Assembly (NCBI GenBank): GCA_965178125.1
Contig: OZ237752.1
Span: 62,001-126,000, forward strand
Direction: 5' to 3'
Length of the DNA: 64,000 bases
From: Bilabrum cf. latius
Lineage: Eukaryota
Shown here: piece after piece, positions 3-54,878 of the stretch
How the letters are laid out: each line of letters opens with the position of its first letter
How positions within the stretch are numbered: position 1 is the first letter of the stretch
Position numbers and translations under genes: made by a program
Notes under the pieces: generated by a model
What the model was told of the DNA's origin: nothing
The model's input: the letters and a program-made list of their open reading frames with translations, nothing else
Databases searched by the model: none

Positions 3-3000
3 TGCACCCTGGCGATCGGCAGCAGCACCTCGGCCACTGTGCGGATCGCGCCCCAGAGCATCAAGGGCGACGACGGGGGCGGAGAGGAGCTGACGGGCGT
101 TGACCTGCTGTCCATGGCGGGCGCAGATCTTGTGTTCGGGTTCAACGGCACGGGGTGCGGGGAGGCAGGCGAGGCGTGCGCAGCAGGTGCGCGGGCTTTT
201 GGGGCCAACTGCACGGACATCATGGGTCTCCCTGGTGGTGGCGTTGGCTGCGGCCTCCGTGGGGTGGATCGGCTGCGGGTTGGGTCAGAGCAGGAGTCTG
301 CTCTGATCCGGAGGCGGGGCTCGGGGCCACATCGCGTGCTCGCGTATCTGGATGTGGCTGGAGGAGTGCCGGCGGCCGCGACGGAGCTACGACATCAGAA
401 GATATCAGCCACCCAGGGCGGCTTCACGGGGCAGCTGGATAATGGTGACTACTTCGGCATTTCTGTGGCATCGCTGGGGGACCTGGACGGAGACGGGGTG
501 GTGGATATGGCTGTAGGGGCAGTGAATGACGGTGATGGGGCCTCTGGTAGAGATGCGGCGTGGGTGCTGTTCCTTCGATCCAACGGCACGGTGAAGTCGC
601 ATCAGAAGATATCAGCCACCCAGGGCGGCTTCACGGGGCAGCTGGATGATAATGACAGGTTCGGCTTTTCTGTGGCATCGCTGGGAGACCTGGACGGAGA
701 CGGGGTGGTGGATATGGCTGTAGGGGCAGTGAATGACGATGATGGGGGCAATTATAGAGGGGCTGTGTGGGTGCTGTTCCTTCGATCCAACGGCACGGTG
801 AAGTCGCATCAGAAGATATCAGCCACCCAGGGCGGCTTCACGGGGCAGCTGGATGACTATGACTACTTCGGCTTTTCTGTGGCATCGCTGGGGGACCTGA
901 ACGGAGACGGTGTGGTGGATATGGCTGTAGGGGCAGTGCATGACGATGATGGGGGCAATTATGGAGGGGCTGTGTGGGTGCTGTTCCTTCGATCCAACGG
1001 CACGGTGAAGTCGCATCAGAAGATATCAGCCACCCAGGGCGGCTTCACGGGGTAGCTGGATGATGATGACTGGTTCGGCATTTCTGTGGCATCGCTGGGA
1101 GACCTGGACGGAGACGGTGTGGTGGACATGGCTGTGGGGGCACTGAATGACGATGATGGGGGCTCTAGTACGGGTGCGGCGTGGGTGCTGTTCCTTCGAT
1201 CCAACGGCACGGTGAAGTCGCATCAGAAGATATCAGCCACCCAGGGCGGCTTCACGGGGTAGCTGGATAATGGTGACAACTTCGGCGTTTCTGCGGCATC
1301 GCTGGGAGACCTGAACGGAGACGGGGTGGTGGACATGGCCGTGGGGGCACATCAAGATAATGATGGGGGCTCTGGTAGGGGTGCGGCGTGGGTGCTGTTC
1401 CTTCGATCCAACGGCACGGTGAAGTCGCATCAGAAGATATCAGCCACCCAGGGCGGCTTCACGGGGCAGCTGGATGACTATGACTACTTCGGCTTTTCTG
1501 TGGCATCGCTGGGAGACCTGGACGGAGACGGTGTGGTGGATATGGCCGTGGTAGCACATCAAGATAATGATGGGGGCTCTGGTAGGGGTGCGGTGTGGGT
1601 TCTTTTTATGAACAACAGCCATGTGGCCCGAGCTCAATACCCCTAGATCTCACAGCCGTTGCCACCCAGCCAAGCGCATGCCATAGAAGGCTCGGCAACC
1701 AGACTGCAGGGAGGTGCTTGCTCTTTGGAGTCCTCGATTGGAGCCGTAGGTGGCAGTAATTCTCATGTGATCGTGCTGGAAGCCTCATGTGACTCGATGG
1801 CATCTGGCGGGGCTGGCATGCAAGACGCAAGCCAGGTGCACCACTCGTGGCTCTCTCGAGGAGGGTATCGCGTAAGGATGGGTGTCGGGTACGGATCTAG
1901 CGCGCCGACCCTATCTGAGCCTGGCACCTCCCCGGATGCAGTCCTGCTGCAGGGGAGCGCAGTGTGCTCCCTTGGGGACTCGAGGCAGGGCGATGGCAGT
2001 CTGGCGCTGCTGGTGGGCGATGCATTCTCCGGGCGCGTGGGAGTGGCCACGGTCGCGGCATCTAGACCGGTGATCGGAGGATCCAAGCCGCCGCTGCAAC
2101 TGCTCCGCAATGACACGGTGCACGAGGGCCCACCATCCACAGGGGCAGCGGTTGCCTGCATGGGTCGAGCGCTCCTGGGCGGCACGTGGCTGCACGACCA
2201 CGTGGTGGCTGCGGGCGCTCCTCTAGAGGACGAGGTGAGGCTGCTGTCGCTGAGCAGAGAGGGACAGGCGTGGTCGGGGCGGGTGCTTGCCACTTTGGCA
2301 TCTCCGACTGGGAGCATGGGCGACAGCTTCGGGGCGGCGGTGGAGTTCCTGGGGCCTCTGCGGCTGGAGGGACAGGAGCCGGATGTGTCCGCTGGGGAGG
2401 TAGGGGGCGAGGTGTCGCTGCTGGTGGGAGCGCCGGACTGGACTGACGGGTCATCCGGTGCGGGGCGCTTCGGTGCCGTGGTAGTGATGCACCTGACCGT
2501 GATAGGGGACACAGGAGCGCCGGACCGGCTCTCATTCACAGTGGCAGGGCACCATCTCGTGTCTCCAGCGCTGATGCCCCTGCGACTGGACGGCCGCTGG
2601 CCCCTTCTGTTTGAAGACTCGGCCTTTGGAGCCGCTGTGGAGCTGCTCGGATTTGGAGATGACGGAACAGTGGTCTTCTACGCCGGGGCACCAGGGTACA
2701 ATGACTCAGCGGGGGCAGTTGCGAGGGTGCAAGTGGACCTATACGCGCGGCTGGGTCCGATGGGGAATGCATCCGCCATCGTGGAGCGGTTGCACGCAGC
2801 TGATTCACTGCACGGGCAGGAGCCTGGGTCGCCTCCGCCCGCTGGCGTGGGGCCCTCGTGCCGCCTGGGCACGGCGCTAGAGACCACGGTTGGGATGCAG
2901 AGCGACCTGGCCACGCAGCAGGTGCACCTGCTGGCCACTGCCCCTGGCTGTAGCGGGCGCAGTCTAGTGCGCATGGAGGCGCCCACGGCCAATCTGAGCT

Positions 3001-6000
3001 TCACACCACCCTGGATGCGGCTGGTGGACCAGCGACGCGCGCGTGCACTGGACTGCGGAGGCACTGCCGGCATGTGTGCCGCCCTCAATGCCACCCTGGT
3101 TGCGAGCTCAGGTGGCGGCGGCTGGCCACCTCTTGACCCCGCCAGCGCGGCAGCTCTCGGGGTCGCTCCTGACACAGACGCCGCGATTGCCGGGGCCAAT
3201 CTCACGTGGGGCGGAGACGCCATCATGCGACACTTGGCGCAGGCAGGCTGCTTGCTGACAGAGGGACTGCTCGGGGGCCAGGCGCCGGGGGCTGGCCAAG
3301 GGGGGCTGCCTCAAGAGGACATCGCCTGGGTGGGTCCCGCAGCCCAGTGCAGTGCGGTGCATGCAAGCCGTGCCAACGATGCGATCGCTGTGGTGCTTCG
3401 GCGACCCATGTATTTGCCTCGACCGTCGGAGTTGGGCAGGGCACAGGAAGCAGCCCACGTCTGGGTGGGCGGTGTCCCCTGCGCCACCGCCAGCCTGCAC
3501 GCCGGCAGCGGCGTCACCATCGTGCAGTGCAATCCAGCGCGGGCGCTTCTGCCTGGACTGGCCGCGGTCGTGATTCGGTATTCAGATGGGCGGTGGTCAA
3601 CGGATGACGGGCAGGAGGGCGCCGCTCTGGTCCAGAGAGAGGAAAGGAGCTCAGGATAGGATCCGTGCGAGAGGAGGATCCAGCTGGCGGCGAATCGGGA
3701 CATGCAAGCTGCACCAGGTACCGCCAATGCCAGTGCCAGCGCCTTGCCGTGCCTGGCTGTGGGCGTGCTGGGTCCGCTGAGGCTGCTGCGGTCGGGTGGC
3801 TGGGGGCCGCAGGTGGGGGCGGGGGATGTGCTAGCTGCTGCTCCCGTGGGCGACGGCTGGGGTGCAGGCGGGGGCTGGGGTACGGCACTGGGAGGGTCTG
3901 GTACTCTGATGACGGAACACTCCGACGACTTGTATCCGTGGACAAGCCTGGCGAACGCATCTGTGACTAGCAGTCGGCAGATCGTACGTGCTCGTGTGGG
4001 CCCCTTTGGGTGTGATGCCGCCGGGCGCTCTGGGTTGGCAGCTGTGGGAAGCACCGCATCCACGACCCTGCGGTGCAACTTGGGCTCTGACGGGTCGGGG
4101 GGTCCGTTTGCGATGACAGCGTCGCTCCCGGGCTTGGACTGGCTGGAGACAGCTCGAATCGCGGTGGAGGATGAGACGGCCGCTGCCCCTTCAGAAGCGG
4201 CCGCCATGCGGGCTGCCTGGGTCTCGATGCCGGATCCTACGGTGCAGTCGGTGAGTCCAGCGACCGTGCGCATCACCACGATGCTTGAGATGTACCTGGA
4301 TCCTTCGAAAAGACTCGAAGTGATGGTACGAGGTACTGGGCTTGTGACGAGTGGAGGGGAGCTGGCTGTGGGGGCAGTGTTGCTCGGTGGCCAAAGATGC
4401 GACCCTCTGGAGGTTGTGTCTGCCACGGAATTGCGGTGCGTGGTGCGGGCGCACTTCATCATGTCTGATACAGTCAGTGTGGTATCGCTTGGCAGCTCAT
4501 TGGTGAACGCCGCAAATGAGACCGACGACGGGACCCGAGGCGCTGCCCTCTCATCCGAATGGAAGTGGATCAGGAACGAAACGTTGCATCCCGTCGGCGA
4601 TATTGGCTGGTCCTCGTTGTCTTCTCAAGCCCCCCCTTGCCCCCAATCAACAATGGTCAATCAGCTCCTAGTCGTGGAGGACCCCACCGTGCTGGGGGCC
4701 AGTCCATCACTGGTGAGTCCCAGCGGTGGGGAGAGCGTGCAGCTGCTGGGGGTGCAGCTTGGGGCGGACGAGGGGCGCTACATCGAGTCCGTGGATGTGG
4801 ACGGCTCGTCATGCACCAATGTGACGGTCGAGTCCGACTTTGTGATCCGCTGCACGTTGTCGCCCAGCGAGGGCGGGGCGGGCGTGGTGCGCGTGCGGAC
4901 AGTGTGGGGCCGCGACTATGTGAGCGCGGCTGGTGTGCTGCGATTTACCGCTCCAGAGATGGACCTAGTGGTCACGTCGCCACAAACCGTCTTCAACGTG
5001 CTGAACTCGTCGTACGAGGTGATCGTCACGGGCCGCCACTTTGGGATCCCGCGGGAGGGAGGCAGCGGCTCAACGGCTCGCGTGCTGGTGTCGGGTCGTG
5101 AGTGCCCGAGCGTGAGGGTGATCAACGACTCGGCCATTCGATGCAGCGGCCTGTCTCCGCCGTGGACACCTAGCGACTACAGTGTGAGGGTGATCATAGG
5201 GAGTCGAGAGGCCGTGGACCTGACTGCCTTCCCCTTCCAGCCGCCGGTACGGGTGACCTCGGTGACGCCGGCCGTCGTTCCCGGGGAGGGAGGCTGGATT
5301 AACGTACACGGTGAGGGGCTGGGCTAGTCCCCGCAGGACATTGCATCAGTCACCATGGGACCGTCTGCGTGTTATAATGTCGAGATGCGCGAGCCGGGAG
5401 TGCGCATTGGCTGCCTGCTGGCCCCTGGTGTGGGCATTGGACACGCGGTGCGGGTGGTGTCAGCCCAGAACGGCGAGAACCTTGAGACAGGGGCACCCAC
5501 GGTGGGGTATGCCGCGCCGCTGATCCAGTCGGTTGCCGTTGTGGGTGGCAGCATTGATACAAGCTACCCCCGCGCCGTCGCCTACACTGAGGAGCAAGAC
5601 ATTCGGCTGGAGCTATCCGTGAAGCACGCCGGCTGGAGCCTGACGCAATGGAAAGCATTGAGCTCGGACGGCCTCGGGGTAGTGCTGCTGGAGGGCCCGG
5701 GATGGAACACCAGCTGCAAAGAGGTGGCAATTGAGGGCACGTCTCCGGCCCTGGGGGATCCATCGGTGGACATGTTGGTCCGCGTGCGATGCTCGGTGCA
5801 GGACTGGCGCACCGCTGGATTGGCCATGGAGCTGGCTGGCACAAGCCAACAGCTGGTGGACGCGCGGTTGCGGGTAGGAGGGCAAGATGCCACAGGAGGG
5901 CTTGATGAGGCAGCCGCTTCGGAGCTGCTGACGGCTTCCGTGGCACCAGGCGGCAGCTTGTTGCTGGTGGGACGGCCGCGCCTGCAGGTGCTGAGTCCCA

Positions 6001-9000
6001 GGACGTTCCCATCGAATGGGACCGCCGACGCTGTGACTAGCGGGTCGGCGTTGAGGGTGCAGGCAGCGCGCGGAGATGGAGAGTCTCCGTCGGTGCAGCT
6101 GGCCGCCCTGCTGCAGCTGGCGGGGTCTGACGACTGGGAGTAGCGGGGGCCAAACAGCCCGCGAGTGTCTGTGGTGCTGTCCGCAACGGATGCAGTTGTC
6201 GTGGCTCCGACCCTGGTGGGCGCGGGTGCAGCTGCGGGGCTGATGCAGATCCGGGGCTCAGGTCTGGGGGCGGGTCCATGGGCCATCCGTGGAGTGACAG
6301 TCGGGGGCTAGACGTCCAGGGTGGTTGTGTGGGTGTCGGACGAGGAGCTGCTGGCGTACTGCGAGCCTGGAGTGGGCGTGGATGTTGCGGTGGTGGTCGA
6401 CACACTGAGCGGCAACTCATCCAAAGCGGCGGGGGCTGGGTCGGGTAGCACCGGGTTGCCATCGGCATCTCAGCACGTTGTGAGCTACGCGGCACCCAGT
6501 GTGGAGGATGTGCTGCCTGCGTACAGCATCATGGGGCCGGATGTCTCGGCCGACTTCACCATCCATGGACTCCACTTCGGCTTCCGACAGACCGACGTGG
6601 AGGCGGTGTTCGTGGGCGGCCAGCCATGCGGGAGCATTCGGTGGAGGTCCAGCACGCGCATCGATTGTGTGGACGTGTAGGGTTCCAGCTGGCCTGCGGG
6701 CAGTCTGGTGGAGGTGCAGGTGGCTAGCCAGACGAGTCCTCGCAACCGCCTCTTCTCGCCCCTGGGAGTGCCCATCGTGACCTCGGTGACACCCGACAGC
6801 GCCTTGGGGGGCGAACGGCTTGTGATCGCCGGGACGAGCCTGGGCCGAAGCAGCGCGGATATATCTCGTGTAAGCCTGGGTCCACACGAGTGCCTCGACG
6901 TAGTCGTACGCGGAGAGACGTCGTTGGAGTGCGTGGTGCCATCGCTGTCGGGCGGTAGCCTCGTGGATCTCCCCGTGGTGGTGTATCAGAGCGGCGGGCT
7001 CTCCAGCGACGAGTCGAGTGCTCCGCGATTCACGTACGGTGTCACGGGAAGTCCCTGGCCGGACATCCCGCAGCATGTGCAAGCATGGCGAGAGCGCAAT
7101 GACCGCATCACGGTCCGCTGGGCATTCCCCGACCCTGCCGCGGTCTCGGTGAACGACCTTGGCCTGGAGCCGCTGGACGGCTTCTAGATCGACATGAGGA
7201 CGATTTCGGAGGTGGCAATAGACGGCGATGGGACCAACACGAGTGTCTCCACGGCCTCAACCGAGTCCACTGCATTCGATGTGGACCTGGAAGAGCTGAC
7301 TGCGCAGTGGAGCTCCTCCGGCAGGGTTGCTGTCATGCAGGCCGTAGTCACGGCAATCGATGCGCGACCATTGAGTGTGCGGGTGCGGGCACGCAGCGCC
7401 GCCGGGCCCAGTCCGTACTCGGCGTGGACGCCCGGCATCCCTTCGTCATGCTCGCCGTCGGAGTTCCTCACGACTCATCTGCCGATGGCCGAGTGGGTGT
7501 GCCGCCCCTGCGACCTGGAGGCCTCGCTGTGCGATGGGGGCTCCACGTTCACAGTGGCGGCACGGGCGGGCTACCAGCGACTACCGTGGGTGCCTGGCCG
7601 CGCGGCATTCTCGCGGTGCCTTCGTCCTGAGTCGTGCCTGTCTCTGGCAAGATTTGATACCGCTTAGGCTGGTGGGTCTCTCGTGGAGGGCACCTCGGAT
7701 GCGTCCGTGTCTAAGTCACATTTGGCATCGCAGAGACGGCTCCAGCCAAGCCAGTAGGTGTCGTCGTCTGATGTGACACTATGGTCGCTATATGAAACCA
7801 ATACCCCCCTGCAGGCCGTGTCGCTGCAGCGCGCTCGTGCAATACGCAAGTCAGCATCGAACGCGTCGGCAGCGCAGGCAGCCAGGATAAGTGAGCTGAT
7901 CGATGCAGGAGCCCCCCTGTGGGTGGGCGAGCGCTGCGAGGAGGGATACACGGGGCTGCTGTGCGCGCGGTGCCGGCCGGGGTACACGCCATGGGGGCAG
8001 TACGAGTGCAGGCAGTGCCGGGGTGGGCTGGCCGTGTTTACGATCGCTGTGCTGGTGACTGCAGCCCTGGTGCTTGTGTCCATCGGCCTTGTGCTCAATG
8101 CGCTGAGGCAAGGAGCGCAGGCGGCGGAGAAGCTGTAGACACAGCTGAGGAGCGGGGCGGCTGGACGGAGCAGGCCTGGATCCAATCGGGATCGCCCAAT
8201 AAGTATGACTGGTGCGTCATCTGAGCCGGGGGCCAGCGGTGGTTCCTTCGTGGTCATGGATAACCCCATTATGCAGAGTTTGTCCACAAGAATGGATAAT
8301 TCCCCAACACAGGATAGGTCCAGTCGAGTGCACTCGGCCATGGCAATGGCATCTGGAAATGGATCATCCACGAATGACGAGGCCTCGCTCCCAGCAGATG
8401 TGCAGGATGGCAAAATTAAGGAGCGCCGGAACCTGACTGTATCGGCCATCAAGATCCTATTCTCACACATTCAGGTTGTGTCCATTGCAGCGTCCTTCAA
8501 GCTCAAGTGGCCCGACACCGCGATCCGTCTCTTCAACAGCATGTCGGTTGTCTCCAGCGTCAGCTCGGACGTGCTCAGCCTCGACTGCATGCTGCAGCAG
8601 GCCACAGACGATGCAGAGGCCCTGGCGCAAGCAGCCAACGTGTCGGTGGACGACGCGGGGGCAGCGGAATGGGGAGCAATTGCGGCACAGGCGGCGGCAT
8701 CTGGGCAAAATATCGCCACGGTCACGCCGCTGGACTGGCCGCACGCCCAGGAGACAGACGAGCAGCTGCTAGCCGACTCGCTCGGCGTTCATGAGGCCGT
8801 GACGCTGGGTGTGGGGGGCGCGTCCTCGGGTCTGGCGTCGCTGATGCCTCACGGGTCTGCGTACTTCCTGCGGACGATGATCGTGCTGCTCAGTCCGTTG
8901 GTGATTGCTATGGGCCTGACAGTCTTTTGGCTGCTTGTAGATGCGATCGATGGCTGTCTGTACGAACCAGAGCACCCGGGCGAGGGCAGTGGCGAGCAGA

Positions 9001-10523
9001 AGGAAGGAGGGGAGTCGCAGGCGGATGTGCGAGAAGGGCCGGGTCAGTCTAGAGGGGAGTAGTAGGAGCCAAGGAAGCTCGCATGGGATGCAGTGCATGC
9101 GGGGGAACAACAGAGTCCGGTGCTAGCGCATCTGGAGGCGAGCCTGGCACGCGCTGCTGGCTTGGAGCAGCCGGCCTCTGCCAAAGCCGCTGCCTCCGTA
9201 CCCTTCACCGACGAGCCAAAACAAGGCCGTCGCCGGCGGTAGAGCCTGTTCGTGTCTATGGTCAGCAAGCCTCCTCTCAGTGAAGCGCCTGGAGTCGAAG
9301 GTGCGGGTACACGTGCTGATGGCAGTGCGCTACCGGAGCAGACGGAGCTCGAGACGTTCTGTCTTGCCGGCAGCTCTCGCACCGGCAGCATCCTGCAGGC
9401 CGTGGGTGTGCCGCTGTCAGTTGTGCGCCTCGGCCTAGGGATGCGCATCCTCTCCGGTCTGATCGTCATTGGGTTCCTGGTGCACCTGACGCTGACAGAG
9501 GCCTCCTTCGGGCTGTTGACCTGCACCGACATCGAGCCTGACCTGGACCTGGCAGCCGAGGACCAGCTGGATGCAGCCGAGGACAGGTCTGGCCGCCAGC
9601 TGAGTCCCAGCGGGTCGGACGAGTGTCCGGCGGGCACGGAGAGTAGGCGGCTCATGCTGGACATGGATGTGTGCTGCCACAACCCCGCGGCTTTAAGGCT
9701 CATGTTCGGGGTTGGCATACCTGCCATCCTGCTGCTGGCCGTAGGCATCCCGCTGGCAGCGGGAGTGCGGCTGTGGCAGGTCCGCGAGTAGCTCGCGACT
9801 CCGGGCGTGCTGGCCACCCTAGGCTTCCTGATGGCGGGGTTCCGCCGCGATGCATACTACTGGGAAGTGGTTATCATGCTGAGGAAGCTGGCTGTGGTGG
9901 CCATCACGGTGCTGGCGGAGCCGTGGGGGGTGCGCGTGCAGACGTACTCGGCATTAGGTGTCATCTTTGCGGCCAGCTTGGTGCATTCCCTCAGTCAGCC
10001 GTATGTGGCCCCGGAGCTCAACACGCTGGAGCTGGTGGCACTGGTGGGCGCCTTCCTGACCTTCGAGGCCGGCCTCTTCCTGCACGACCCCAACTCGGGG
10101 GCAGCGACCATCACGGTGGCAACGTCAGTCGTATTTGTGGCGAACCTCGCTGTAATGATGTGGGGCATCTATGCCATACGAGGCAACTTGTTTAAGCGAG
10201 TGAAGGAGGTTGCCGCGAGGGTATTCAATATGTGTGGATGTGGGCAGGACCGGCAGGAGTAGGTGCAGACGAACTCCGAGAGCATGGAGAAGCGGCGGCG
10301 AGCGAAGCTGTCCAGGTCGGGGCCTGCAGGCGCGGGTGCGGGTGGAAGGGGCACGAGTGGTCCTACTTGTGCATCCGTCGATGTTGGAATGGGAGGCGGG
10401 GCACAGCAGAGCGGCCTCGCTGGCGAGCCAAAGGGTTTTGGAGGTGACTTGGGTGGCGATGCTGGGTGGAAGCGGATGCCGAGTGGCAATCACGCGGCAT
10501 AGGACGCCGCTGAGGAAACCTGA
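3..10523 (+). CDS. Very large surface/membrane protein (5'-truncated, >3500 aa with TAG=Gln): FG-GAP/integrin-alpha propeller repeats, several IPT/TIG domains, FN3-like and Cys-rich segments, C-terminal multi-pass TM domain
   Basis: ORF-track fragments 39..1055 through 10263..10502 share one frame and are separated only by TAG (18: 1053,1260,1644,3657,5325,6141,6309,6678,7185,7665,7755,8136,9060,9063,9240,9789,10260,10500). First TGA is 10521-10523. Motifs: GDLDGDGVVDMAVGA, VTSVTP/V.VGG..C, CEEGYTGLLCARCRPGY, SLDC, LGFLMAGFRRDAYYWEVVIMLRK. Confidence 0.88.
385..1610 (+). repeat. Six near-identical 207-bp (69-aa) coding tandem repeats of an FG-GAP/integrin-alpha propeller blade
   Basis: CATCAGAAGATATCAGCCACCCAGGGCGGCTTCACGGGG[C/T]AGCTGGAT recurs with period 207; the variable codon lies at 432, 639, 846, 1053, 1260 and 1467. 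Confidence 0.95.
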
Positions 10524-10774
10524 CGGCCTCAACTCGATCGCAGAAGGGGGGGGCCTGGCGGACCTGCGGCCGGACATGGTCGTGCAGCTGAGGCGTAGGC
10601 CAGAACAGCTGCCCCAGGACGGGCGACTACAATGGTTGCGCGTAGAATTTTGTACTGTAATTCACTTTTCGTAATTCGCAGCTAGATCTAGGCGCTTCTG
10701 CGCGGCACTCGCAGCTGCGGAACCAGAAAAAGATCTCATAATTTTCTCACAGATATTTGTGTACCACGTGCGGG

Positions 10775-13072
10775 ATGCGCTCCTTGGTTGCAGGCATCTG
10801 CATTGGTGTACTAATTGTCATCTCACCCGCCCATAGCTCCAAGATTCCAGTGTCGGCTGCCGTGGTAACGGATGCTTTCGGCATAGACTCTCTCGACCAA
10901 CCGGCAACCGCCCTCTTCGACGAGCAGTCCCTGGCTGGCGACCCGTTGCATGGCGCCGGGGGCAAGTGTAATACGTCTTGGAATCCTGGGTGGCAGAAGG
11001 ATTGGTACAAATACCCAACGCGGCCGCTGGCGATAGTCGACCTCGGGTAGGTTTGGCAGCTTTCGAACCTTTGCATGCAGCATACGTGGGGAAAACCCAT
11101 CCTGAACATCAGCTTGAGCAACGCCCCTGTGCCTAGTATCTCTGAGAGGGTGCAGTGGTTCCAGGTTGAGACCGGCCAGCCTGGGTTCCCCGTCGGCGAC
11201 CACAGGTGGGGCTGCGCGAACGCGACCTCCGGAGGCGGGATGCCCGCGGACCTCAGCGGGCGCTGGCTTCGTGTGGGTCTACCAACAACGACTGGCAGTG
11301 CGGTACTAGAGCTGGTCCTGTACGGGTCGCGCTCTTCGGAGGCTGCCCCAGCGATCTCGTCGTCCTCCACGCCGGCCCTCGGCCTCGCGCTGCCTCAGGC
11401 TGGGCCACCCCCACCGGCAGGCGGCTCGGAGGAGGCTGCAGCCTTTCCCCCCGTGGCCCTGTCCCAGCTGCTGGGAGTGAACGTCGTGGGCGCGGTCTCC
11501 TCGGTCGCCAATCTCTCCCTGCTGGCCCCCTACGGCGCCCCCGTGCGCATCTACTCGGACTGGGACTGGACCGAGCACGTGCAGGGGCAGTCCGCTTTCG
11601 AGCCCACCGCGGACACGGGCTTCATGTATGACGACTATCTTGCCGCGCTGGGGCCAGGGAACAACACTAACAAGGAGATGGCGGCGGGCCTGGGCCTGAA
11701 ACCGCACGTGGTGGTGCAGGGCACTGCAGGCTTCGTGCACGGAGGCAACAAGACCGAGGCCAAGTGGAAGGCCATGAACGCCTCGCTGTTCCCTGTGCCG
11801 GGGGCCTCCCAGGACCCCGCCAGCTACAAGGAACTGGCAGGGCACATGTTCCAGTGGGCCGCGCGGTACGGCTCCAACGCCCAGGTGGACAGGAGCCTGC
11901 TGCGGCTGGCACCGGGGCAGCCCCCTCTTGTCGGCTCCGGTCTTCAGCCATGGCTGGAGGTGCTCAACGAGCCGGACGGTTGGTGGGAGGGTCGCGAGGC
12001 GTACTACACCCCTCTTGAGTACGCTGCGGCTCTCTCGGCGTCCTACGACGGGCACGAGGGCCGGCTGGGCCCTGGGATGGGCATCAAGGCAGCTGACAGC
12101 GGGCTCAAGGTGGCGCAGGGGGGGCAAGCACAGCTGCCCGGCAACGGGACAGAGCTGCAGGCCCTGGAGGCGGCTTATCTCTGGGCGCAGGTGCATCGCA
12201 CTGACAAGAAGTTCCCAGCAGACGGCATCAACATGCACCACTACAGCACCAACACCACCAACGGATGGGACGGGCAGGGCATCCCCCCGGAGCAGGACGG
12301 GCTGCTGGCCCTGGCCCAATCCTTCGGGCAGTGGAGGGACAAGAGGGCCCCGCATGCGGAGCTATGGTGGTCAGAATACGGGTACGACACCAACGGGGGC
12401 CCACAGACCGCGCCCTCCCTGGGCCCCTTGTCCCGGGAGGAGGTGCAGGGGGCGTGGCTGGTGCGGACCGCCCTGGTGCTGGGAGCCTCGGGAGCCGTGC
12501 AGCGGGGGCACATGTACATGCTGGCGGATGTGAGCTCGCAGGGACATGGCAAGTACGCGACCTCCGGTCTGCTGACGGACAAGGCCAGCTTCTTCCAGCG
12601 CAAGGCGGGGTGGTACTACGTGAGCGCCTTCCACTGGTGGGTGGGTCACCTGGCCGTGGTGCAGCCGCAGCAGGGGGGAGGGCGAGAGGGGGGGCTGGTG
12701 CAGCAAGGGCAGGTCACGGTGGCGGTGCTGGCGCCCGCTGCCGGGCAGGGCGCGCGCCCAGGAAAGAAGAACGCGGGGGCAGGCTGTGCCGAGGGTTGGG
12801 TTGGCGCCCCCTGCGGCGGGGGCGGGGGCTCTGCTCCTCCCCCCCCCTCGGTGAGCGGAGGTCTGGCGGCGTGGCTGCCGACTGGGAGCGGAGCGAAGGC
12901 GCCCGGGTCCACCCTCTCGCTGCCCAAGGGAGCCCCGGGGGAGGGCTCCAGCGTCAAGGTGGTGCGGCTGCAGACGGGCCAGCCCCAGGGCGTGGTGACG
13001 AGTGCGACGGTGGGCAAGGGCGGCAGCGTGGAGCTGGACGTGGACGAGACCCCCCTGTTCGTGCTGTGGTGA
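10775..13072 (+). CDS. Secreted glycoside hydrolase-like protein (clan GH-A-type TIM barrel) with N-terminal F5/8C (discoidin/CBM32-like) module, ~765 aa
   Basis: ATG 10775 with signal peptide MRSLVAGICIGVLIVISPAHS. One in-frame TAG (11048) in 'IVDLG[Q]VWQLS'. Catalytic-like EVLNEPD and WWSEYGYD motifs. Ends TGA; no intron needed. Confidence 0.75.
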
Positions 13073-16599: not shown

Positions 16600-18841
16600 A
16601 TGCTACATTTGGGCGCTCTTGCAGGGTGCATATATGTATTGAGTGTTGTTGCGACGCTATCCACTCACATCGATGTGTAAGGCATCAAAATAGGCCTATT
16701 TGTCAGCCGTATCACGGCCCAGAGCTTGAATGCTGCCAGTGCCAAATTGGCAGCGCTCCCGTCTTGTACTGCAGAATCCATGTCCATATTGATGATTTAG
16801 GCTCAAGGATGCTTGGATACAAGAATCCCTAGGTGATTTCACCAACACTGGATCGCATGGCAACCGACGGGATCCGGCTGACGAATTACAACGCTTTTCA
16901 AGTTTGTGCCCCGACTAGAGTAAGAAACAGAGGAGAAGTATGACAATTTGTCTCGTAAATGCATGCTTGGTTGGTCAGTAGAGTCCGTAAGCGAAAATCC
17001 GTCGTTCCTTGGCCTCTGCAGGCCAGCGTGCTCACGGGACGCTACCCTTGGAGGCAGGGCGCCTACTACTGCGTCGGCGACAACTACGGCGTGTTCCCGC
17101 AGTTCAAAATGATCCCGGAGCACCTACAACCGCACGGGTATGCGACGGCCCACATCGGTAAATGGTGAGTGGTCAGGGGAGGCGTCGCTCGGAAAGCACG
17201 AGGCGCTTGGACGTTCGCGCTCAGCAGGCTGCGGTACCGCGTCAAGCGTGCTGGCCCTGCACTCTCCGACCTGATTATCGCAGGCATGCTGGCTACTTGC
17301 GGAGGGAGTACACTCCTGCGTACCGTGGGTTCAACCGCTCGCTGGGCTACTACCAGGCCGGACTCGGGGACTACTGGATCCACAACGCGACTAACTTTGC
17401 CATTCACTGCCCCAATGCCACCACGGACCTATTCAATTCCACGGGGAAAGTCCTGGGCAGCGCCAGGGGCTAGAACCACACGTACAGCATGGACGTCTTC
17501 CGCAGAGAGGCCGTGTCATTCGTGCGGGACACCCCGTCGGAGCAGCCCCTGTACCTATACTTCGCCACGGAGAACATCCACGACCCGCTCAACGTGGACA
17601 TGAAGTACGTGGACATGTATCCCCAAGTGGAGCTGGACACCTTCAAGGTCGCGTACGGCATGGTCACGGCCCTTGATGATGCGGTGAAGAGGCTCATGGA
17701 CCAGGTGCGGGTGGCGGGCAGGGGCAACCGCACCGTATGGATCGTGACGAGTGACGTGAGTGAAACCTGTGATGAGTGCGTGCTAGGAAATTTCCTGCTG
17801 TTTTCCGTCCCTGGCGCGTGTCACCTCCCATACCACCCCCTGCTGCTCCTATCCCACTCGTCCTGGTGCTCGCCACCGACCCACCGCTCAGCAGCACCTG
17901 CCCCTCCCTCCCTACTTACTTTCACCACGCCCACAGAACGGAGGCCCCTTGGACCAGTGAGCTGCACTGTGCCATGCAATGTCCCGTATCACGTTACATT
18001 GGTTCATCAGTCTCGGCTCCTTCTCTCTTCCTCGCTCCCCACCAACCCATCCCCCCGCAGCAACTACAACATCGGGAGGGGAGGCAAGCACACGTACTGG
18101 CGCGGTGGTCTGGAGGTAGAGGCCTTCGTCTACTCGGACTCAACGGACATTATCCCGGAGGCCATGCGGGGGGCCCGCTGGGGCGGACTGGCACACGCAT
18201 CTGACCTCCTCCCTACCATCGTCGAGGGCATTGCGGGGGAACAGCTGCAGCCCGAGCCAGAGGCACCCTTCCCCCTAGATGGCGTCAACCTCTGGAGCGC
18301 CCTCCGAAAGGGGGAGCCCTCCCCTCGGCAGGAGGTCATCCACAGCGTCAGCAACTCTCACTACAACTACACGGTCAACCACCACATCAGCGACGTCATC
18401 ACCAGGGGCGGCTTCAAGCTCATGAGGGTGCACCAGGGAGACAACAGGACAATCCCCGTGAGGCCCATGGCACAGTCCAACGTGAGCTTCGGGCTCTCCG
18501 GTGGGTGGACCCAGGCCAGCGAGGGGTTCCCCGAAAACGCCCTCGTAGGCGGGTTGCCTACCCCGCGAGTGTATCCCCAGTGCCAGGAGAGGCCCTGCCT
18601 ATACCACCTGGCGACGGACCCCGACGAGGCCCACGATTTGGGTGGGGACCCGCAGTACACCGACGTGGTGCGTCAGCTGACTGGCATCCTAGACGGCGAG
18701 AAGGAGAAGGCCATGCCGCTGGCCGCGCCCTACTCGGATGCGGACTTCCGCGGCGTGGTCAAGCAGCTGTGCGAGGTGGCGGGCCGCACGGGGGGGTTCA
18801 TCCAGCCGGTCGACTACTTCGAAGGGGAGCACTCAAACTGA
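16600..18841 (+). CDS. Secreted arylsulfatase (ARSB-like, formylglycine-dependent S1 family), 6 exons: 16600-16676, 16775-16919, 17022-17164, 17284-17755, 17937-17956, 18061-18841; ~545 aa
   Basis: All introns are GT-AG with consistent phases. Splicing rebuilds IDDLG, CAPTR-ASVLTGRY, GKWH, RGF and SDNGG..RGGKH. In-frame TAGs at 16830 (KNP[Q]VISPTLD) and 17471 (ARG[Q]NHTYS). Ends TGA. Confidence 0.9.
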
Positions 18842-19382: not shown

Positions 19383-22300
19383 ATGTCGCGCTTCTCTGCA
19401 TTACTTTCGACGCTTGCTGCACTGATCGGACTCGCGCATGCCGGCATCATTCGAGAAATCCACAGCGTGTCGCCGGACCATGGAGGTTTCGGAGGTAAGA
19501 GCACCGCATTTGATTGACGTTTGTGCAGTAATTATGTGCGCTTGACATGCCGATGATTATCGTGCGGCCATTAACCAAGACGAGTCCCAGCTCAGTCGGA
19601 AACCGATCCACTCGTCTCCACTTCGGTCGCAGGCGGCACTCGCGTTACCATCCGAGGGGTCGGGTTCAGCACGGATCTCATAAATGGAAATAATTAGGTG
19701 TTCATCGGGGAGGAAGGCGAGTTCGAGTGCCACGTGATCCCGGAAGAGTGCAGCCCCCGCAAGATCGTCTGCGAAACATCGCCCAAGCCGGATCGGGTGA
19801 GCACGGGCCGGCTGCCCGTGCGAGTCATCGTGGACGTGCTGCACAGCATCACGAGGACCTCGGGCTTCTACTACACGAGTCGCGTCACTCCGTACGTGAG
19901 CCGCCCCCTCGAGCACGAAACGGCCCTGCGCGTGGGCGAGGCCCTGGTCCTCAGGGGCAGCCTGCGCATGCCCTCCGCCACTCGCACAGGACATTTTCGC
20001 GTGGCTGGACTCAGGAGGCAGCTGCAGGGGCACCCAGACACCCCGCTGGTCAACGCAGACGACTTCAGTCTGCAGGACGCGAACGGGGCGGTGGACCTGC
20101 AGCCTGCTCTCGCTCTCGTGCTGCAGCCCGCGCCTGCCACGGGCACTGGGGGCAATCGCACTGCGTCGGCTGTTTCAGCCGCCCTGCGCCGGGAGTACAC
20201 GCTGCTGTCTTCCGCAGACAGAGAGTCCATGCGACGCCCCGGCGAGCTCGGGAGTCTTGAATCCAGCGGTGCGCCGGGCGGGGGCAGCATCGTGGCATCT
20301 GCGGAGGCAGCCATGGGCGCTGCAGAAGACGAGGACAGCGGGAGACTGACGGTGGGCCGAGACCGATACCGCGGCACCATTCCGCTGGATGCCCGCAGCG
20401 GGGTGTGGAACCTGTCTGTGGTGGCGGGGCACGCGGGAGGTCGGGCGCTGCATGCCTCTGGTGGACTGCAGACCAACGCCGACCAGAGAGTGGGTGAGGC
20501 AGGCATCAGGTTCGAGGTGGGCGTGTTTCCGTCGCTTCAATGGCAGGACGGGGACATTTCAGTGGATGCGATCCGTCTTGCTGCCCCTGAACAGCAGGGC
20601 GAGGGCAACAACGAAGGGCAGCCCGCAGCCCAGCTGCCAATCAATCTGCTGCGCATGATCACCGCAGGTCAGGAAGTGGGTGAGGCCCGCCCGCAGCCTG
20701 TGTCCTGGCCATGGTTCTGGGGCCTGTCTGCCCCTCGCTCCGTGGAGGGCGGGGGCCAGCGCACGCTCTGGGGTTCTGGCCTTGACCCTGTGGCGGCAGA
20801 TGGCAGTCGGAGGTCACGCCAGGCGGCCATGCTGACGACCGACCTAACCTCGATCTGGGCGTGGACAGGAGAGCCCCCTTCCTTCACGGGGGACGGACTG
20901 GTCCCCGACGTGAACACGAGGGTGTCCTTCTCCGCCATCGAGGCGCTCAGGCAGTGGAGGTCGCAGGAGCAGGCCAGGCGGGCAGTGGCGCTGGCTCACC
21001 TCCCGGCCCCCATCGCCCTCAGGGCCAGGGAACAAGATCGCTTGGAATGGTGGTCGGGAGCGTCGCTGGGTGCGCGCAGGCTTTGCAAAATCGTGTTTGC
21101 GGAACCGGAAGCCGCCTTGTGCCGCGACGGTAGCCAGGCAGCATCCGCTGCGGCGCATCTGCTGCTGCGGGCCGTGTGGGAGGGCGCTCACGCTGCCACT
21201 GTCGCGGGGGCGCTGGTGTCTCCGCCGGAGCAGCTGCTTCACACCGAGCCTGGGAGTATCAACGGCACTGTGCCCGAGCAGCAGGCGAGCTGGGTGTCCC
21301 CGCCGCAGTGGGCACTCGAGGAGGCGGGGCTGGCCGGGAGCGGGCAGGCAATCCCCAGCGGCGACGGTGACGAAGTGCCTCCCCCTCGTGCTGTGTCTGC
21401 AGCCATTAGTGGATCGTGGTACGACGCAAGCGTTGCGCTGTAGTTGCCCCGGTGGGGTGTGTGGGACCTGTACGTGGGACCAAGACAGGCGCTCCGGCCT
21501 CACCAGAACGTGACGGTGCTGCCGCCCGAGGGGATGCCACTCACAGCGCGGATTGGGAGCTCGGTGGGCGCAGCATCGATCGATGCGGGGCAGGGGAAGG
21601 GACAGGGGCTGGCATGGGTGCCTCTGGGCACACTGGACCGCCCTGGTCCTGCACTTGATGATAGTGGAGCGGTGGTGGGCGGCGAAGATGAAGGCCATAC
21701 CACCACCAGTGAAGTGACCGTGAATCTGCAGCCCCCACCCAGCTCCCAGGCCCGCTTGCTGGCGGTATGGCGGGGCCCAGATGCATGGTCTGCCTCGCGC
21801 GTGCCCGTCCCTCCTGCCTTTGTCGATGCCAACGGCACCGCTCCCATCGCCCTAAATGCCACGGAGTGCACTGGCGAGCAGGAGGCCCTGGGAGGGACCG
21901 GTCACCCCATGGACCGACCGCTCGCTGCCGCTGCTCGCACTGCCAGGGTGCAGGCAGCCCTGGGTACCGATTGGAACACCTCCCTGGCCCTGTCTTCCGC
22001 CGGAAGGATCTGCCTGGACCCTCAGGCGATCAATTACGCGGGGGAGGGGCTAGAGCATCTCCTAGCGCGATCGGACGTGCTCAGGGCTGCGCGCTCCCTG
22101 CTGCAACTGGACCTGGATCTGGCCAACGGAACTGCCAGGAGCGGAGCGGCCGCTGGCGCGCAGGGGCGAATCGGTGCCAGCGCGCTTGCGGCCGCTGGTC
22201 AAAGCCAGTGGTCCGGTGTGCTCTCTGGTCCGTCGGTCCGCGCCGCAGTGCACAGGGCCTATGTGTCTGGCCTGGCGAGGACTCCTCTGTTCGAAGGGGC

Positions 22301-25300
22301 CGCGGGTCTCGCATCTCCCATGGTGCCGCTGCTGTCTGTGGCTGCAGCGAGGCATGCCGGGCCTGCATCGGCAGCTCGCGGTGCAGTCGGGGCATCTTTG
22401 GATGATGTGGTGCCCGTGGTGGCATTGCTGGACTCGCTGGCAGAAGGAGAGCCCGCTGCGGCTGACCGGTGGCAAGCTCTGGACGGGTGCGTGTACGTTG
22501 GAGGGAGGGGCGCGCTTCTGGATGTGCACAGGGCACCGCCAGACAGCCCCAGCCCGCGCTCTCCTAGCCACGTTGCAGGCTCACCCCTGGTGGGCTCGCT
22601 TGCCGCCATGCAGTGGAGGCACCGGCCCGGTGGACTGGGAGATTCTACTGGCCGAGTCCAGCAGACTGGCAACGGAACGGTGCGGTACGGCCCCGCGCCG
22701 GTCGCCCCGGCACCTCGAGCCCCTCAAGAGGTGCGCCTGCTGGAGCGCACGTTGTCCGCCCCCGCTGATCTCATGGGCCGCAGTGACGTAGGGGCCGTCC
22801 TGTCGGGGCTCTTCATGGCGCCAGCCAGGGGCACGTACCGGTTCCTGGTGGCCCACTCGCGCGGGGTGCAGCTGTTTGTCGGGCACGGGCACAGTCCGGC
22901 GAGTGCTGCCAGCCTCAGGCGGGTGGCGCACTCGGACTCCGGGTACACCTCCACCACGGCATTTTCGCTCGTGTCCCAGCCCGTGACCGTGTCGGTCGCG
23001 CGGGCCGTCCTTGTTGTGGCCGCGGTGGAGCAGGGTGTGGGCACCACGGCCATCCTCAAGCTCAGGGTCGAGGTGCGGGGCGCGGACGGAGAGTGGGTCC
23101 CGCTCAACGGACACCCGCACGGAGCCCCCGGAGCCTTCTTCGCAACGGCGCACGCCGCGCCCCAGATCGTTGTATCGTCGAGGGGCCAGCGGGGGGCGTG
23201 CGACAGGGAGGCCGCCTGGGACTCTGAGCTGGGCCTCGTGCGGTCTACCGGACTAGGGTGCGATGCCCCGGACTCTGCTCTGAGTCACGCGCTGCCACAG
23301 GGCCTGGCAATGGGTGCTGTGGCAAGAGCAGCCGGTCTTGTTAGGAATGGGGGTGCTGATTCTTCACTGGTGTCATAGACCACGCTGCCAGAGCGGCCGG
23401 TCGAGTCGCACATGTCGGTCGGATGGGCAGTCCTGGATGTCTGCCTCGCTTCCAACGCGAGTGTGTGGGGGTCATGCTGGGCGGCACGAGGGAACAGCAG
23501 TGATGCAGCGGCAGCCTCGACTCGCAGCGATGCAAGCTGGATGCCTCGGGTGTCAGCGGGTGACGTGATCGAGGTGGTGCTGGCGGGACCTGCAGCTGAA
23601 ATGTCGCCTGCAGCGTGCAGCCTCAGCAGCAGCTCGACCATCGGGGCCTCCTCGCAAGCGTGCCTCCGTGCTGTTGAGAGGCGCCTGCTCGTCGAGGTGG
23701 GCGGGGAGCAGTGCCAGCTGGTGGGCGCGTCCGGCCCTGACGCCGCTGCAGCCTCTCCCCAGGCAGCCGCGGCGGTACTGCGGGACGACGGTGCCGTGTC
23801 TCGCATCCGATGCACCGTCGGTCGCGCCATGCCGGGCAGGCACCCGGTCCGCGTAGAAATCGCTGGGTGGGGTCACGCACTTGTGGGTCCCTCCCCAGAG
23901 CTGTCCCTGTCTCCCGCCGGCCAGCTGGTGGCGGTGGCGGCGCGCGCCTCACGACTGAACGTGACCGATGGCTAGGTGGACGAGGCAGCAGCACTGGTCC
24001 CCGTGCCGGGCACGGTGCGCGTGCCGCTTGCCGTCGACGGTCTCTCCTCGTCTCTGGGCAGCATCGCGGGCGGTCTAGAGCTGAACGTAACTGGCGCGGC
24101 GCTTTCCGAGGCAGTCCGAATCCGAGTGGGAGGCGTGGCCTGCCCCATCATTGTGAGGCTGAACCGCGCGTGCAAGCGCAGGGATGGCGCGTCGGGCGTA
24201 AACTGCCACCCAGACGAGATGCAGGACGTTAGGGCTGGCTACGAGTTTGCTTCTTGCGAGGTTCCCGCAGCGCTCGCCAACGGCACCGAAGCCTGGATGG
24301 CAGTGCAGGAGGCCGCGAATCGCAATGCCAGCTCTGGGGCTAGGACTCCCGTGGCGGCTGGCACCAACGCCACTGTCCTCCGGTCCGCCCTCCTGGCTGG
24401 CCTCCCCGCAGCTGTTGACGTGGAGGTGTGTTCGGGAGACCTGGCCGCCTCCACCCTCCCAGGGGTGGCCGCGGCGCGGGAGCAGTGCATCACGCTGCGT
24501 GGCGCTTTCACGTACGATCCCAGCGAAGCGGGCACGCCGGTGCTGGACTCCATCTCGCCCATGGTGGGACCACCGGGTTCCGAGGTGACCGTGGGAGGCC
24601 GCGGCCTGGGCCCACGAACAGTGGGCACCCTCGGCCTGGCCTACGTCATGTCTGAGTTCGGGTTCTGGGAGCGGCCGCGGGCTATCGGGGTGGAGCTAGG
24701 TGAGGCGCCCTGCGTGCTGTCGAGCGCAGGCAACACGTCAGTGCAGTGCACTGTGACGTCCAACGCCGGTGGAGTGGCAGAGGCGGATGGGTGGGTCTGG
24801 GGCAAGGGTGCTGCGGTAGTCAGGCCAGGGCTTGCATTTCGGTACGCCCTGTCTATCGAGGCCGCGCATCCCACGAGCGGGTCCGTGCGGGGCGGGACAG
24901 AGGTGGTGGTGCTGGCACGGGGACTGAACCCGCGCGTGCTGGCCGAGAACCGGGCCTTTTTCGGGGCTGACGAACACTCGATCGTGCCGTGCGACGTGCG
25001 AGAGGTCGGTGAAGGGCTCGGGCCCGCAGCTAGCTGGGCACTTCTCCCCGACGCTCCCGAGCTACCCACCGAGCTGCTGTCCATGCCTGCTTCCGAATCA
25101 TAGGCGCAGGGCCTGGCGTGGCTGCGGTGCGTGACGGGGCCTCCCTTCGACCCCGACGACTACGATCCCCAGTACGGCGAGGTCTTTGACTCTCCCTGGC
25201 TGTTCGACAATGACGACACCAACGTCCCTGGCGCCGACCTGGACCACGACACGGTGCCTCTGCAGCTGACCGTCACATGGACGTACAAGGAGTACACCAC

Positions 25301-43300: not shown

Positions 43301-44129
43301 TTCTGATGAATCTGGGATCCGGAACGCGCGAATCTTGGAGCGGTTATCGCTTGCGCGAGAGGCTGGTAGTGTTGTACTGCAGCGGTCCGGTGCAGCTGGC
43401 GGTTCTGATGCTCGTAGAAGAGCGCAGGCTGCAAGCACGGTGATCGTGGCGGGCGATTCCCCCCTGGCCCTCGCTGCTCGCTCCATGGGGGCCCCAGTGC
43501 TGGGCACCACTGCCTTCCTGAGTGAGGATGGTGTGCCCGTGGGAGGGCTGGAGGTGTAGTGCCCGTTCGAGGCGCAGGGAGAGCAGTGGGACAGCGCGGC
43601 CTGGAGGTGCGTTGGGGCCCCGTCGACGTCACCGTCTCCCTCCCCTTCCAGGGTGCCCGAGCAGAGCCTGGACGCCTGCGAGCCTGGGACTGACGGGTGC
43701 TTCGTGGGTCGGGGCTCTGACGGTGGCGGCATGTTAGGTGCCGGCGCGTGGGCCGGAATTGGGGTCGGAGTCGCTCTAGTGTGTGCCGCGCTTGTGATTG
43801 CTGCGCTGTACATGAGTGGACGGTGCGGGAGGGCAAAGCCCGTTGGGCAGGCGTCCGCTGGTTTCACTGGGAAAGCGGCGGCAGGTACCGGTCCTGTTCT
43901 CATGGCCTCAAAATCGTCAGGCAAGGTCCCGATGGCGTCGCGTATGCCTGATCAGCTCGGTACTTCTAAGGCTGAGCTTCAGACCCAGCGGTCCTCCCGA
44001 CTGTCCAACCCGTTGTACGAGGCAGCAAGGCGAGATGCCAAAGGCCGCTCACCGTCGTTCTCGCGGCATTCGTTCGGGACGAAATCCCCTCGGAAGGGCC
44101 CCGGTAAGGCAGGGTCAGACCTCGGGTGA
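19383..44129 (+). CDS. Giant fibrocystin-L/PKHD1L1-like type I membrane protein, ~8200 aa; exon 1 19383-19494, exon 2 19633-44129
   Basis: Signal peptide, then a phase-1 GT-AG intron. One frame with 19 TAGs (19695,21441,23376,23973,25101,28629,29079,29712,30051,30456,30987,31848,34206,34704,38484,41475,41565,42225,43557) and first TGA at 44127. IPT/TIG repeats, PA14-like segment (~22750-23100), G8 (DRWSARTTWGG ~31140), beta-helix region (AEVALLTRNVVVRG), LamG-like (~35050-35540), second G8 (YWSDPDLW ~36190), HCDG...DEDGSLTG, EGF (~40360-40470), TM (~43735-43815). Confidence 0.88.
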
Positions 44130-47400: not shown

Positions 47401-48620
47401 TGCCTATCTTCTTCATCTACATCCTCCTCGCTGTAGTCTCCCTCCTCTACCGAGAGCACCTCCAGCTCCTCCCCAAAGTCGAGGTCCAGATCCCCCTCCT
47501 CCTCTTTCCCACCCCCCGCCTTCCTCTTTCCCCCCCGCCTGAGTCCCCGCCACAGGGGGGCCAGCACGTCTACAGCCGGCATGGCCGCCGCTCGCCTCCC
47601 GCTCTCCACGTAGAACTGCATCGCGGGCCGGAAGCCCCCTCCTGACACGAGGCTGTTGGCATCCGCCTCGATGGCTGCCAAAGCGGACTCGTCTAGACCC
47701 TCGGGCAGCGGATGACTTCCACTCGCGGGCGCAGTTGCTTCAGCCGGACTTGAGGCCTCTGGTGTGTCTGTGCTGTCCAGTGGCCGACTGGGTGTGTTGC
47801 CGGTGGGCTGTTGTGCCTCGTGGCTGTGCTTCAGTGTATGAGTTTTCTATTCAAGAGCCTCAGCGTTTGTGTGATTCTGCTCCTCAACGTTCCTCTGCTG
47901 CCCAGTGTTCGCCTCATGAAGAGACGTTCGAAAGGCAACCTCTTCTTCCACGTCCAAGGGCCGATATGATCCCACCAGAGTGAACAAAATTAACACGTAC
48001 GATATAAATATTATAGTGAACAGGGTGAAGCCAGCTGCAGGTAGGCTCAAGCCGTGCAGAACCTCAACACCGAGAGCTTGCACAGAAGCCACCACAGAAA
48101 ACCTGCATTGGCTCACAAATGACCCGTTCAAGCACACCGTATCGGAGTACGATACTACTATAGATAGTACAGTCCAAATGATACACGCTCCAACGATCCA
48201 TGGCAAGTATGGTAGCCAAGTCGGTTGGACCTCGCAAGCTTGCAAAAATCCCGAGCTAGCCAGTGGGGGCGGTGGTTGATATTCTGGCAGAAAAGTCGCG
48301 TTACTGCCTGGTTGACTTTCTGCGCTTGCACTACCCGACCTGCTGATCTACCTGTCCTCGAATGGCCAAGCTGCACAATTGGCAAGCACAGTTGCACCAA
48401 CTCCAGCGACGATCCCAAGCTTACACCCATAGTATACGAGGGCCCCTGGGCCGATCCATATAATTCTAGCCGTGAAATCCCCACCGGCTGCTTCAATAGC
48501 GGTTTCTGCTCGCAAATGAGCTATCCGAGCAATATCAAGTCGCGTCGATTCGGCACTGGCAACCCGGCTGACAAGCCGCCGGTTGCCGAGTGGTTCATCG
48601 CAAACATCCTCTGTCGCCAT
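44403..48620 (-). CDS. Uncharacterised multi-pass membrane protein (~1405 aa) with N- and C-terminal TM clusters separated by a long low-complexity loop
   Basis: ATG 48620; one frame broken only by 9 TAGs (48348,47847,46755,46560,46014,45882,45651,44778,44592); TGA at 44403-44405. Hydrophobic helices near 48400, 48150, 48000 and 44600-44990. Confidence 0.7.
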
Positions 48621-54595: not shown

Positions 54596-54878
54596 GCTGC
54601 CTGGTCAACTTGCAGTCGGGTCGCCGTCACGAGAAGTGTCGGTTGCGTTATGAAGCCGAATGTCTGCACTACCGAACGAGTTTAGGAGCGCCTCTGCTTG
54701 ACACGGCTGCTAGCTGGTAATTCCTCGGAACTAACAACAATAGCTCTCTTGTAGACCCAATCGACAGCTTACTACGACTCCGTGAATCCGCAGCGAGCCG
54801 TGAGGCATTTTATTAGGAACGAAACCGATCGGAAGTGCAATATGGTGCTGCAGCTCTCTCATCAGTGTACCAACACCG

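Follow-up and report, generated by a model that had tools for sequence, protein, structure and literature searches.

In-frame TAG as a very probable glutamine codon in a GC-rich nuclear locus of Bilabrum cf. latius, with a CAG/TAG alternation in a tandem FG-GAP repeat

A stretch of 64,000 nucleotides (nt) from Bilabrum cf. latius (contig OZ237752.1, positions 62,001 to 126,000; here called the window; G+C 64.8%, no N) begins inside a long gene, g1, in which six tandem copies of a 207-nt FG-GAP repeat carry one codon in two spellings, CAG at 432, 639, 846 and 1467 and TAG at 1053 and 1260. A sequence-only reading of the window had reported these six codons, which direct reading of the letters bears out, and had proposed that the two spellings are synonyms for glutamine (Gln). 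The locus therefore raises the question of whether TAG is a stop or a sense codon here, which amino acid it specifies, and how much the repeat itself contributes to the answer. We conclude with high confidence that the window derives from a GC-rich (64.8%) eukaryotic nucleus in which UAG is a regular Gln codon and no stop, that TGA ends every gene in the window, and that the CAG/TAG difference in the repeat is silent. The locus is eukaryotic, nuclear DNA, because it holds a sulfatase gene with GT-AG introns and a eukaryotic protein kinase gene, g8, for which a cluster atlas search returned eukaryotic clusters only.

In-frame TAG is frequent in the intact, conserved genes of the window, the pattern by which UAG reassignment is recognised. 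We counted codons in eight credible genes (17,439 codons), dropping the open reading frame (ORF) at 13713-15899, the sulfatase ORF, which is interrupted by introns, and the stretch of g7 that precedes its Met. These genes contain 59 TAG, no TAA and seven TGA in frame, each TGA being terminal, and only two of the 59 TAG are the repeat codons, the other 57 being spread over the remainder of g1 and the seven other genes; g1 alone has 18 TAG, no TAA and no internal TGA. Translation with table 11 cuts the frames at each TAG and splits the window into many medium ORFs, and taking TAG as sense yields frames of 3,507 and 8,185 codons. Taking TAA as sense as well adds nothing to the former and six codons to the latter (8,185 to 8,191), and taking TGA as sense does nothing comparable. 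The sequence-only reading had the repeat-bearing gene running another 9 kb in frame, and with TAG as sense it is indeed open to the TGA at 10521-10523. In their two remaining frames these genes have TGA or TAA at 1.72% of codons, a rate that would put about 300 in frame if there were no constraint; 8,143 codons free of both have a chance probability of log10 P = -61. Pfam domains continue across the TAGs, and four protein pieces of a relative (P0133-P0136), encoded on one 32,010-nt contig, are 88-95% identical to g5 and collinear with it, in one frame, on both sides of its TAGs. TAG makes up about 8.5% of the Gln codons in the window.

The amino acid is indicated by comparison with relatives, whose pieces cover 13 window TAG sites at 84-95% identity, 11 in g5 and two in g7 (Table 1). 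At these sites the relatives have Gln nine times, Glu twice, and Trp and Gly once each, and never Leu, Tyr, Ser or Lys; in the same alignments CAG of the window pairs with Gln at 193 of 212 sites. Using substitution frequencies taken from these same near-orthologue alignments, we obtained a log10 likelihood of -9.6 for Gln over the 13 sites. Glu follows at -23.3, Lys at -27.2, Leu at -36.4, Trp at -37.5, Tyr at -43.8 and Ser at -48.0, so that Gln leads Glu, the runner-up, by a factor of about 10^14. The earlier preference for Gln over Leu, Tyr, Glu and pyrrolysine is upheld, with a log10 margin of about 14 over Glu. The codons GAG (Glu) and TGG (Trp) each differ from TAG by one base. In the sulfatase and kinase genes the TAGs fall in variable or inserted segments and were left out of the residue evidence, and among the best 150 of 4,650 representative matches the five TAG sites within g5 residues 3250-4449 lie in variable columns that are gapped or unaligned. 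To the extent that sequence comparison can show it, TAG is translated, as Gln, and TGA terminates.

The places where the relatives' proteins break off point the same way. These proteins are predicted under the standard code and hence end at their own stop codons. Seven internal ends of their ORF pieces (P0135, P0133, P0147, P0199, P0140, P0134 and P0086) could be placed on the window: four fall at a window TAG (23376, 30456 and 30987 in g5, 8136 in g1), three directly before a window CAG (28065, 31758 and 34218, all in g5), and none at any other window codon. From this we infer that the pieces end at TAG codons of the relatives' own.

Several observations weigh against this conclusion. Gln stands at nine of the 13 TAG sites compared with 212 of 239 at Gln codons in the same alignments (Fisher p = 0.06), so that four of the 13 have another residue; 10 of the 13 derive from one contig of one relative; and P0002, at 57% identity, has Asn and Glu at two other g7 TAG sites. 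At least one of the relatives' internal ends could be the end of a contig. The window itself contains neither part of the expected decoding apparatus: ARAGORN found no transfer RNA (tRNA) genes in it, Rfam gave no matches at gathering score, and no eRF1 gene is present among its ORFs by Pfam. The last TAG of g1 (10500) stands only seven codons ahead of the TGA at 10521-10523, which could hint at a dual role as sense codon and stop near gene ends.

We found that the repeat which raised the question is consistent with Gln and is not decisive; it illustrates a code that the rest of the window establishes. Tandem Repeats Finder reports one array at 393-1600 with a period of 207, 5.8 copies, 91% matches and 0% indels, and a separate repeat search gave six copies at 207-nt spacing, the sixth unit being divergent across its final nine codons. 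The six codons therefore form one column, codon 14 of a 69-codon unit, as the alignment of the six units called for in the sequence-only reading confirms; an identical 30 nt precede codon 14 in all six units, and all six lie in the frame of ORF 3..10523. The loop peptides that it had singled out for units 4 and 5 are indeed unique to those units among the six, and tryptic cleavage would put the two TAG sites in peptides of 59 and 50 residues. The proposed synonymy was right in its conclusion, for which the repeat alone was weak evidence and could not decide. CAG is a transition neighbour of TAG whatever TAG means, and a tolerated replacement would look alike. Among units 1-5 variable codons with an amino-acid change (15) outnumber silent ones (seven), so one more differing codon is no evidence of synonymy. 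The site is also a permissive one: in 192 repeats of bacterial homologues it holds Val 42 times, Thr 36, Gln 35, Ile 18, Pro 11, Ala 10 and Asp nine times, with others, which places Gln (35/192) among the three commonest residues, and no residue reaches 50% or more of this column in a 22-sequence family alignment. The orthologue comparisons cover no part of the repeat region, and the two repeat TAGs probably count as one event.

Five sites are common to units 4 and 5 and exclusive to them among units 1-5, at unit positions 40 (the T of TAG), 114, 123, 130 and 159; units 2 and 3 share eight exclusive sites, and all other pairs have 0-3. In units 1-5 an invariant 79-nt block spans each unit junction and ends one base before codon 14. 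The C of codon 14 lies outside CpG, which makes two independent hits less likely. The simplest reading would be a single C-to-T change that two neighbouring units came to hold in common by duplication or within a conversion tract. The suggestion in the sequence-only reading that TAG spread between the copies in this way is plausible and has some support in the five exclusive sites, short of a demonstration.

The array encodes an integrin-alpha-like beta-propeller of four-stranded, repeated FG-GAP blades with the FG...GAP/Ca-binding-type motif. Pfam FG-GAP (PF01839) matches four stretches (E 1.9e-18), FG-GAP_2 and FG-GAP_3 also match, and an AlphaFold model of the propeller (421 residues, mean predicted local distance difference test score 95.1) has four strands per unit, with codon 14 in the loop that joins the last strand of one blade to the first strand of the next. 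The best Protein Data Bank match of the model in Foldseek is the head domain of an integrin alpha chain (E 2.1e-19, TM 0.56). The likeness to integrin alpha lies in the Pfam family and the fold; the units here are near-identical 69-residue copies and by sequence are no integrins.

A search with g1 gave 109 matches among 8,000 scored candidates, dominated by bacterial FG-GAP proteins, with P0086 the only near-orthologous piece. The FG-GAP blades (375-1637) share 51-70% identity with 21 selected homologues, most of them without names; the matches of the g1 search that do carry names are bacterial, for example Phycisphaerae, Planctomycetes and Bacteroidetes. Such closeness is unusual for a eukaryotic gene and may reflect horizontal transfer or strong conservation of the module.

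UAG may be the only codon that has changed its meaning. TGA terminates seven of seven complete credible genes, and nine of nine ORFs once the sulfatase ORF and the dubious ORF 13713-15899 are added, and none of the seven credible genes ends in TAA. CAA and CAG stand in the proportion 97:539, so that about 10.6 in-frame TAA would be expected beside 59 TAG if TAA were also Gln; the observed zero argues against TAA as a Gln codon. The window fits a UAG-only change with TGA as working terminator, nine gene ends being too small a sample for the role of TAA.

Other explanations account for parts of this evidence. If TAG were still a stop, the genes would be pseudogenes, strings of separate ORFs or subject to occasional read-through, which would agree with the frames broken by table 11 and with the storage of the relatives' proteins as separate database pieces. 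This has a near-negligible probability given the 8,143 and 3,506 consecutive codons without TGA or TAA against about 1.7% per codon off frame, the collinear single-frame pieces flanking the TAGs at 88-95% identity, and the domains that run on past them. Leaky read-through across the 18 TAGs of a single gene would leave essentially no full-length product, and the pseudogene and leaky read-through readings are not tenable. Editing of U to C in messenger RNA, turning TAG into CAG under a standard code, is harder to separate from reassignment, because it too would yield Gln at every TAG and CAG/TAG interchange between relatives, and it mimics all the sequence evidence. Reverse U-to-C editing that removes stops occurs in some plant organelles, and to our knowledge there is no nuclear example. 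Editing would also be expected to rescue TAA and TGA, yet the 17,439 codons hold neither TAA nor an internal TGA, and we regard it as very unlikely. An ambiguous code of the kind found in some ciliates, in which TAG is Gln inside genes and may act as a stop close to the 3' end, draws on the g1 TAG seven codons before its TGA and on the existence of context-dependent codes (PMC4967479; 10.1101/2022.04.12.488043). The last TAGs of the other genes, by comparison, stand 63 to 674 codons upstream of TGA, and P0136 and P0001 have C-termini that agree with the TGA-terminated ends in the window; on this small sample of nine gene ends we hold the explanation to be unlikely.

That TAG is a sense codon for some other residue (Ser, Leu, Glu, Tyr, Lys, Trp or pyrrolysine) can appeal to the Glu and Trp found at two and one of the 13 orthologous sites and to the many residues tolerated at codon 14. 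The Glu and Trp are what ordinary substitutions would give, and the likelihoods of all residues other than Gln lie far below its own. All three of the relatives' ends that are off a window TAG fall on CAG. Pyrrolysine was rejected: its machinery is prokaryotic, TAG is spread over all eight credible genes, of unrelated kinds, and aligns with Gln, and no pyl gene appears among the Pfam matches. Reassignment of UAG alone to Ser, in the green alga Scotinosphaera, or to Leu, in the rhizarian exLh, is reported for nuclear genomes (PMC11687900, PMC8271138), and both types were rejected with Ser and Leu at none of the 13 sites. Overall, a residue other than Gln seems extremely improbable. It is also quite unlikely that the two repeat TAGs are assembly or consensus errors in this 91%-identical array. 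Tandem units of 207 nt are hard for short-read assembly, but units 4 and 5 have private differences and, besides the T, four exclusive shared sites, which indicates distinct and consistently resolved copies, and 57 further in-frame TAG occur in credible genes. Such an error would remove the repeat example only, and the code change would stand.

Under the preferred reading of UAG as Gln, UAG would have lost its stop role and become a regular Gln codon, with TGA ending genes. The alternation at codon 14 would then be an ordinary silent C-to-T difference, in which the TAG probably arose once and came to be common to units 4 and 5 when a unit was duplicated or converted. As in all cases characterised so far, we would expect the decoder to be a tRNA-Gln(CUA) derived from tRNA-Gln(CUG) by a single anticodon mutation, alongside an eRF1 whose recognition of UAG is lost or weakened and which would no longer compete at that codon (PMC5304391, PMC2984419).

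UAG as Gln corresponds to NCBI table 15, and UAR (UAA and UAG) as Gln to NCBI table 6. The UAG-only change to Gln is listed for the fornicate Iotanema spirale, the ciliate Protocruzia tuzeti and some phyllopharyngean ciliates (PMC11687900), and the window resembles this type in that UAG is Gln and UAA is no Gln codon (59 TAG, 0 TAA). Iotanema is described as keeping UAA as its dominant stop, with a predicted tRNA-Gln(CUA) unable to read UAA (PMC5304391). The window departs from it in ending genes with TGA only, with no TAA stop. This genome has 64.8% GC and spliceosomal introns and, judged against the base composition of ciliates, is presumably not ciliate-like. UAR is reported as Gln, with TGA the sole stop, in ulvophytes (Dasycladales, Cladophorales, Trentepohliales and Blastophysa), and UAR as Gln also in hexamitid diplomonads, the oxymonad Streblomastix, the aphelid Amoeboaphelidium and many ciliates (PMC2984419, PMC8271138). 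The window shares with these the Gln meaning and TGA as the sole terminator observed; in that code, however, TAA is also Gln, whereas 17,439 codons of the window contain no in-frame TAA. Scotinosphaera and the rhizarian exLh are alike in having UAG alone as sense in a nuclear genome and differ in the residue. The same codon meaning, TAG as Gln, is described as 'genetic code 15' in crAss-like and other phages (PMC9523058), but the window is cellular and eukaryotic, with GT-AG introns, a kinase gene and genes of 10 to 24 kb. In the open-access literature searched, we found no GC-rich non-ciliate eukaryote with UAG alone as Gln beyond the cases named.

This is a known type of nuclear code change, of which the repeat is a small example. 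Nuclear code changes are rare, and the uncoupling of UAG from UAA is rarer still, with only a handful of cases in which the two have parted listed in PMC11687900. It is possible, though we hold it only tentatively, that the window represents an undescribed code, that of a GC-rich, intron-bearing non-ciliate in which UAG alone is Gln, TAA has nearly vanished and TGA does essentially all the terminating. That combination is the state predicted by codon capture under GC pressure. If TAG is Gln, TAA is absent from the reading frames and TGA is the only stop in this GC-rich genome, it would be a useful test case for UAG/UAA uncoupling and for codon capture versus ambiguous decoding as the driver; if the code of the organism's lineage has already been described, for example in an ulvophyte alga, the result would be a correct but routine recognition. 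In practical terms, standard-code annotation of this genome cuts genes at every TAG, and public sets store a relative's version of the 8,143-residue protein of g5 as four pieces.

Table 1. Features of the 64,000-nt window, with the TAG sites compared with relatives (window coordinates).
Feature	Position	Strand	Description
Gene g1	3..10523	+	5'-open at window edge; 3,506 codons plus TGA stop (10521-10523)
Tandem array	393..1634	+	six 207-nt (69-codon) units; one FG-GAP blade per unit, integrin-alpha-like beta-propeller
Unit 1 codon 14	432..434	+	CAG (Gln)
Unit 2 codon 14	639..641	+	CAG
Unit 3 codon 14	846..848	+	CAG
Unit 4 codon 14	1053..1055	+	TAG in frame, read as Gln; model residue 227, loop
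Unit 5 codon 14	1260..1262	+	TAG in frame, read as Gln; model residue 296, loop
Unit 6 codon 14	1467..1469	+	CAG
g1 TAG codon 2712	8136..8138	+	P0086 piece (88% identity, g1 residues 2608-2711) terminates directly ahead
Gene g2	10757..13072	+	carbohydrate-binding/hydrolase-like, bacterial type; 1 in-frame TAG; TGA end
Sulfatase gene	16800..18841	+	spliceosomal GT-AG introns; two in-frame TAG; TGA end
Sulfatase introns	17756-17936 and 17957-18060	+	GT-AG; flank 20-nt exon 17937-17956
Gene g5	19698..44129	+	fibrocystin-like; single ORF, 8,143 codons plus TGA; 18 in-frame TAG
g5 TAG sites, relative Gln	21441, 30051, 31848, 34704, 38484, 41475, 41565, 43557	+	near-orthologue pieces
g5 TAG sites, relative Glu	25101, 34206	+	near-orthologue pieces
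g5 TAG site, relative Trp	42225	+	near-orthologue piece
Gene g6	44403..48620	-	low-complexity protein, membrane-like ends; 9 in-frame TAG; TGA end
Gene g7	49019..50761	-	secreted glycoside-hydrolase-like; 4 in-frame TAG downstream of Met
g7 TAG	49430-49432	-	Gly in P0001; low-complexity stretch
g7 TAG	49823-49825	-	Gln in both closest homologues, P0001 (85%) and P0002 (57%)
g7 TAG	50345-50347	-	seven distant homologues: Gln in 3, Glu in 1
Gene g8	51130..54366	-	protein kinase domain, Pkinase E 1.4e-68; 5 in-frame TAG; TGA end
Gene g9	56328..58691	-	Gly/Ala-rich protein; 1 in-frame TAG; TGA end
Gene g10	60512..64000	+	3'-open at window edge; 3 in-frame TAG

We detected several further features in the genes of the window. 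Besides the FG-GAP blades, Pfam places IPT/TIG domains and a DUF7630 cysteine-rich module in g1, which ends in membrane-spanning-looking C-terminal segments; at 9060-9065, within a Glu/Gly-rich linker, g1 carries a TAG-TAG codon pair in frame. The domains of g5 are IPT/TIG, ILEI, two G8 and CEMIP-type beta-helix modules, laminin-G-like and EGF. This surface protein is encoded by 24.4 kb of uninterrupted ORF without introns, whereas the small sulfatase gene nearby has several. The upstream exons of the latter carry the CxPxR motif (position 16905), and both introns flanking its 20-nt micro-exon are open in frame, hence their concealment in the ORF list. The nearest feature clusters of g2 in the atlas search are bacterial and carbohydrate-binding, some with F5/8 type C domains, and distant relatives of g7 carry PF22848. 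Both g2 and g7, secreted and carbohydrate-active-looking, contain in-frame TAG and are therefore host genes and no bacterial contamination.

A scan of genome contigs yielded no relative, its one match being at 31% in a bacterial metagenome-assembled genome. A minisatellite at 14207-15400 has at least 33 copies at a spacing of 29-30 nt (a period of about 29.5 nt), which is not a multiple of three. It is overlapped by the minus-strand ORF 13713-15899 (728 codons, proline-rich repeats, six TAG), which is probably not a gene. The genes form three strand runs, with plus-strand genes from 3 to 44129, minus-strand genes from 44403 to 58691 and plus-strand genes once more from 60512 onward. Across the whole window the coding strand is richer in G than in C, and the 2-kb bin around the minisatellite has a GC skew of 0.35.

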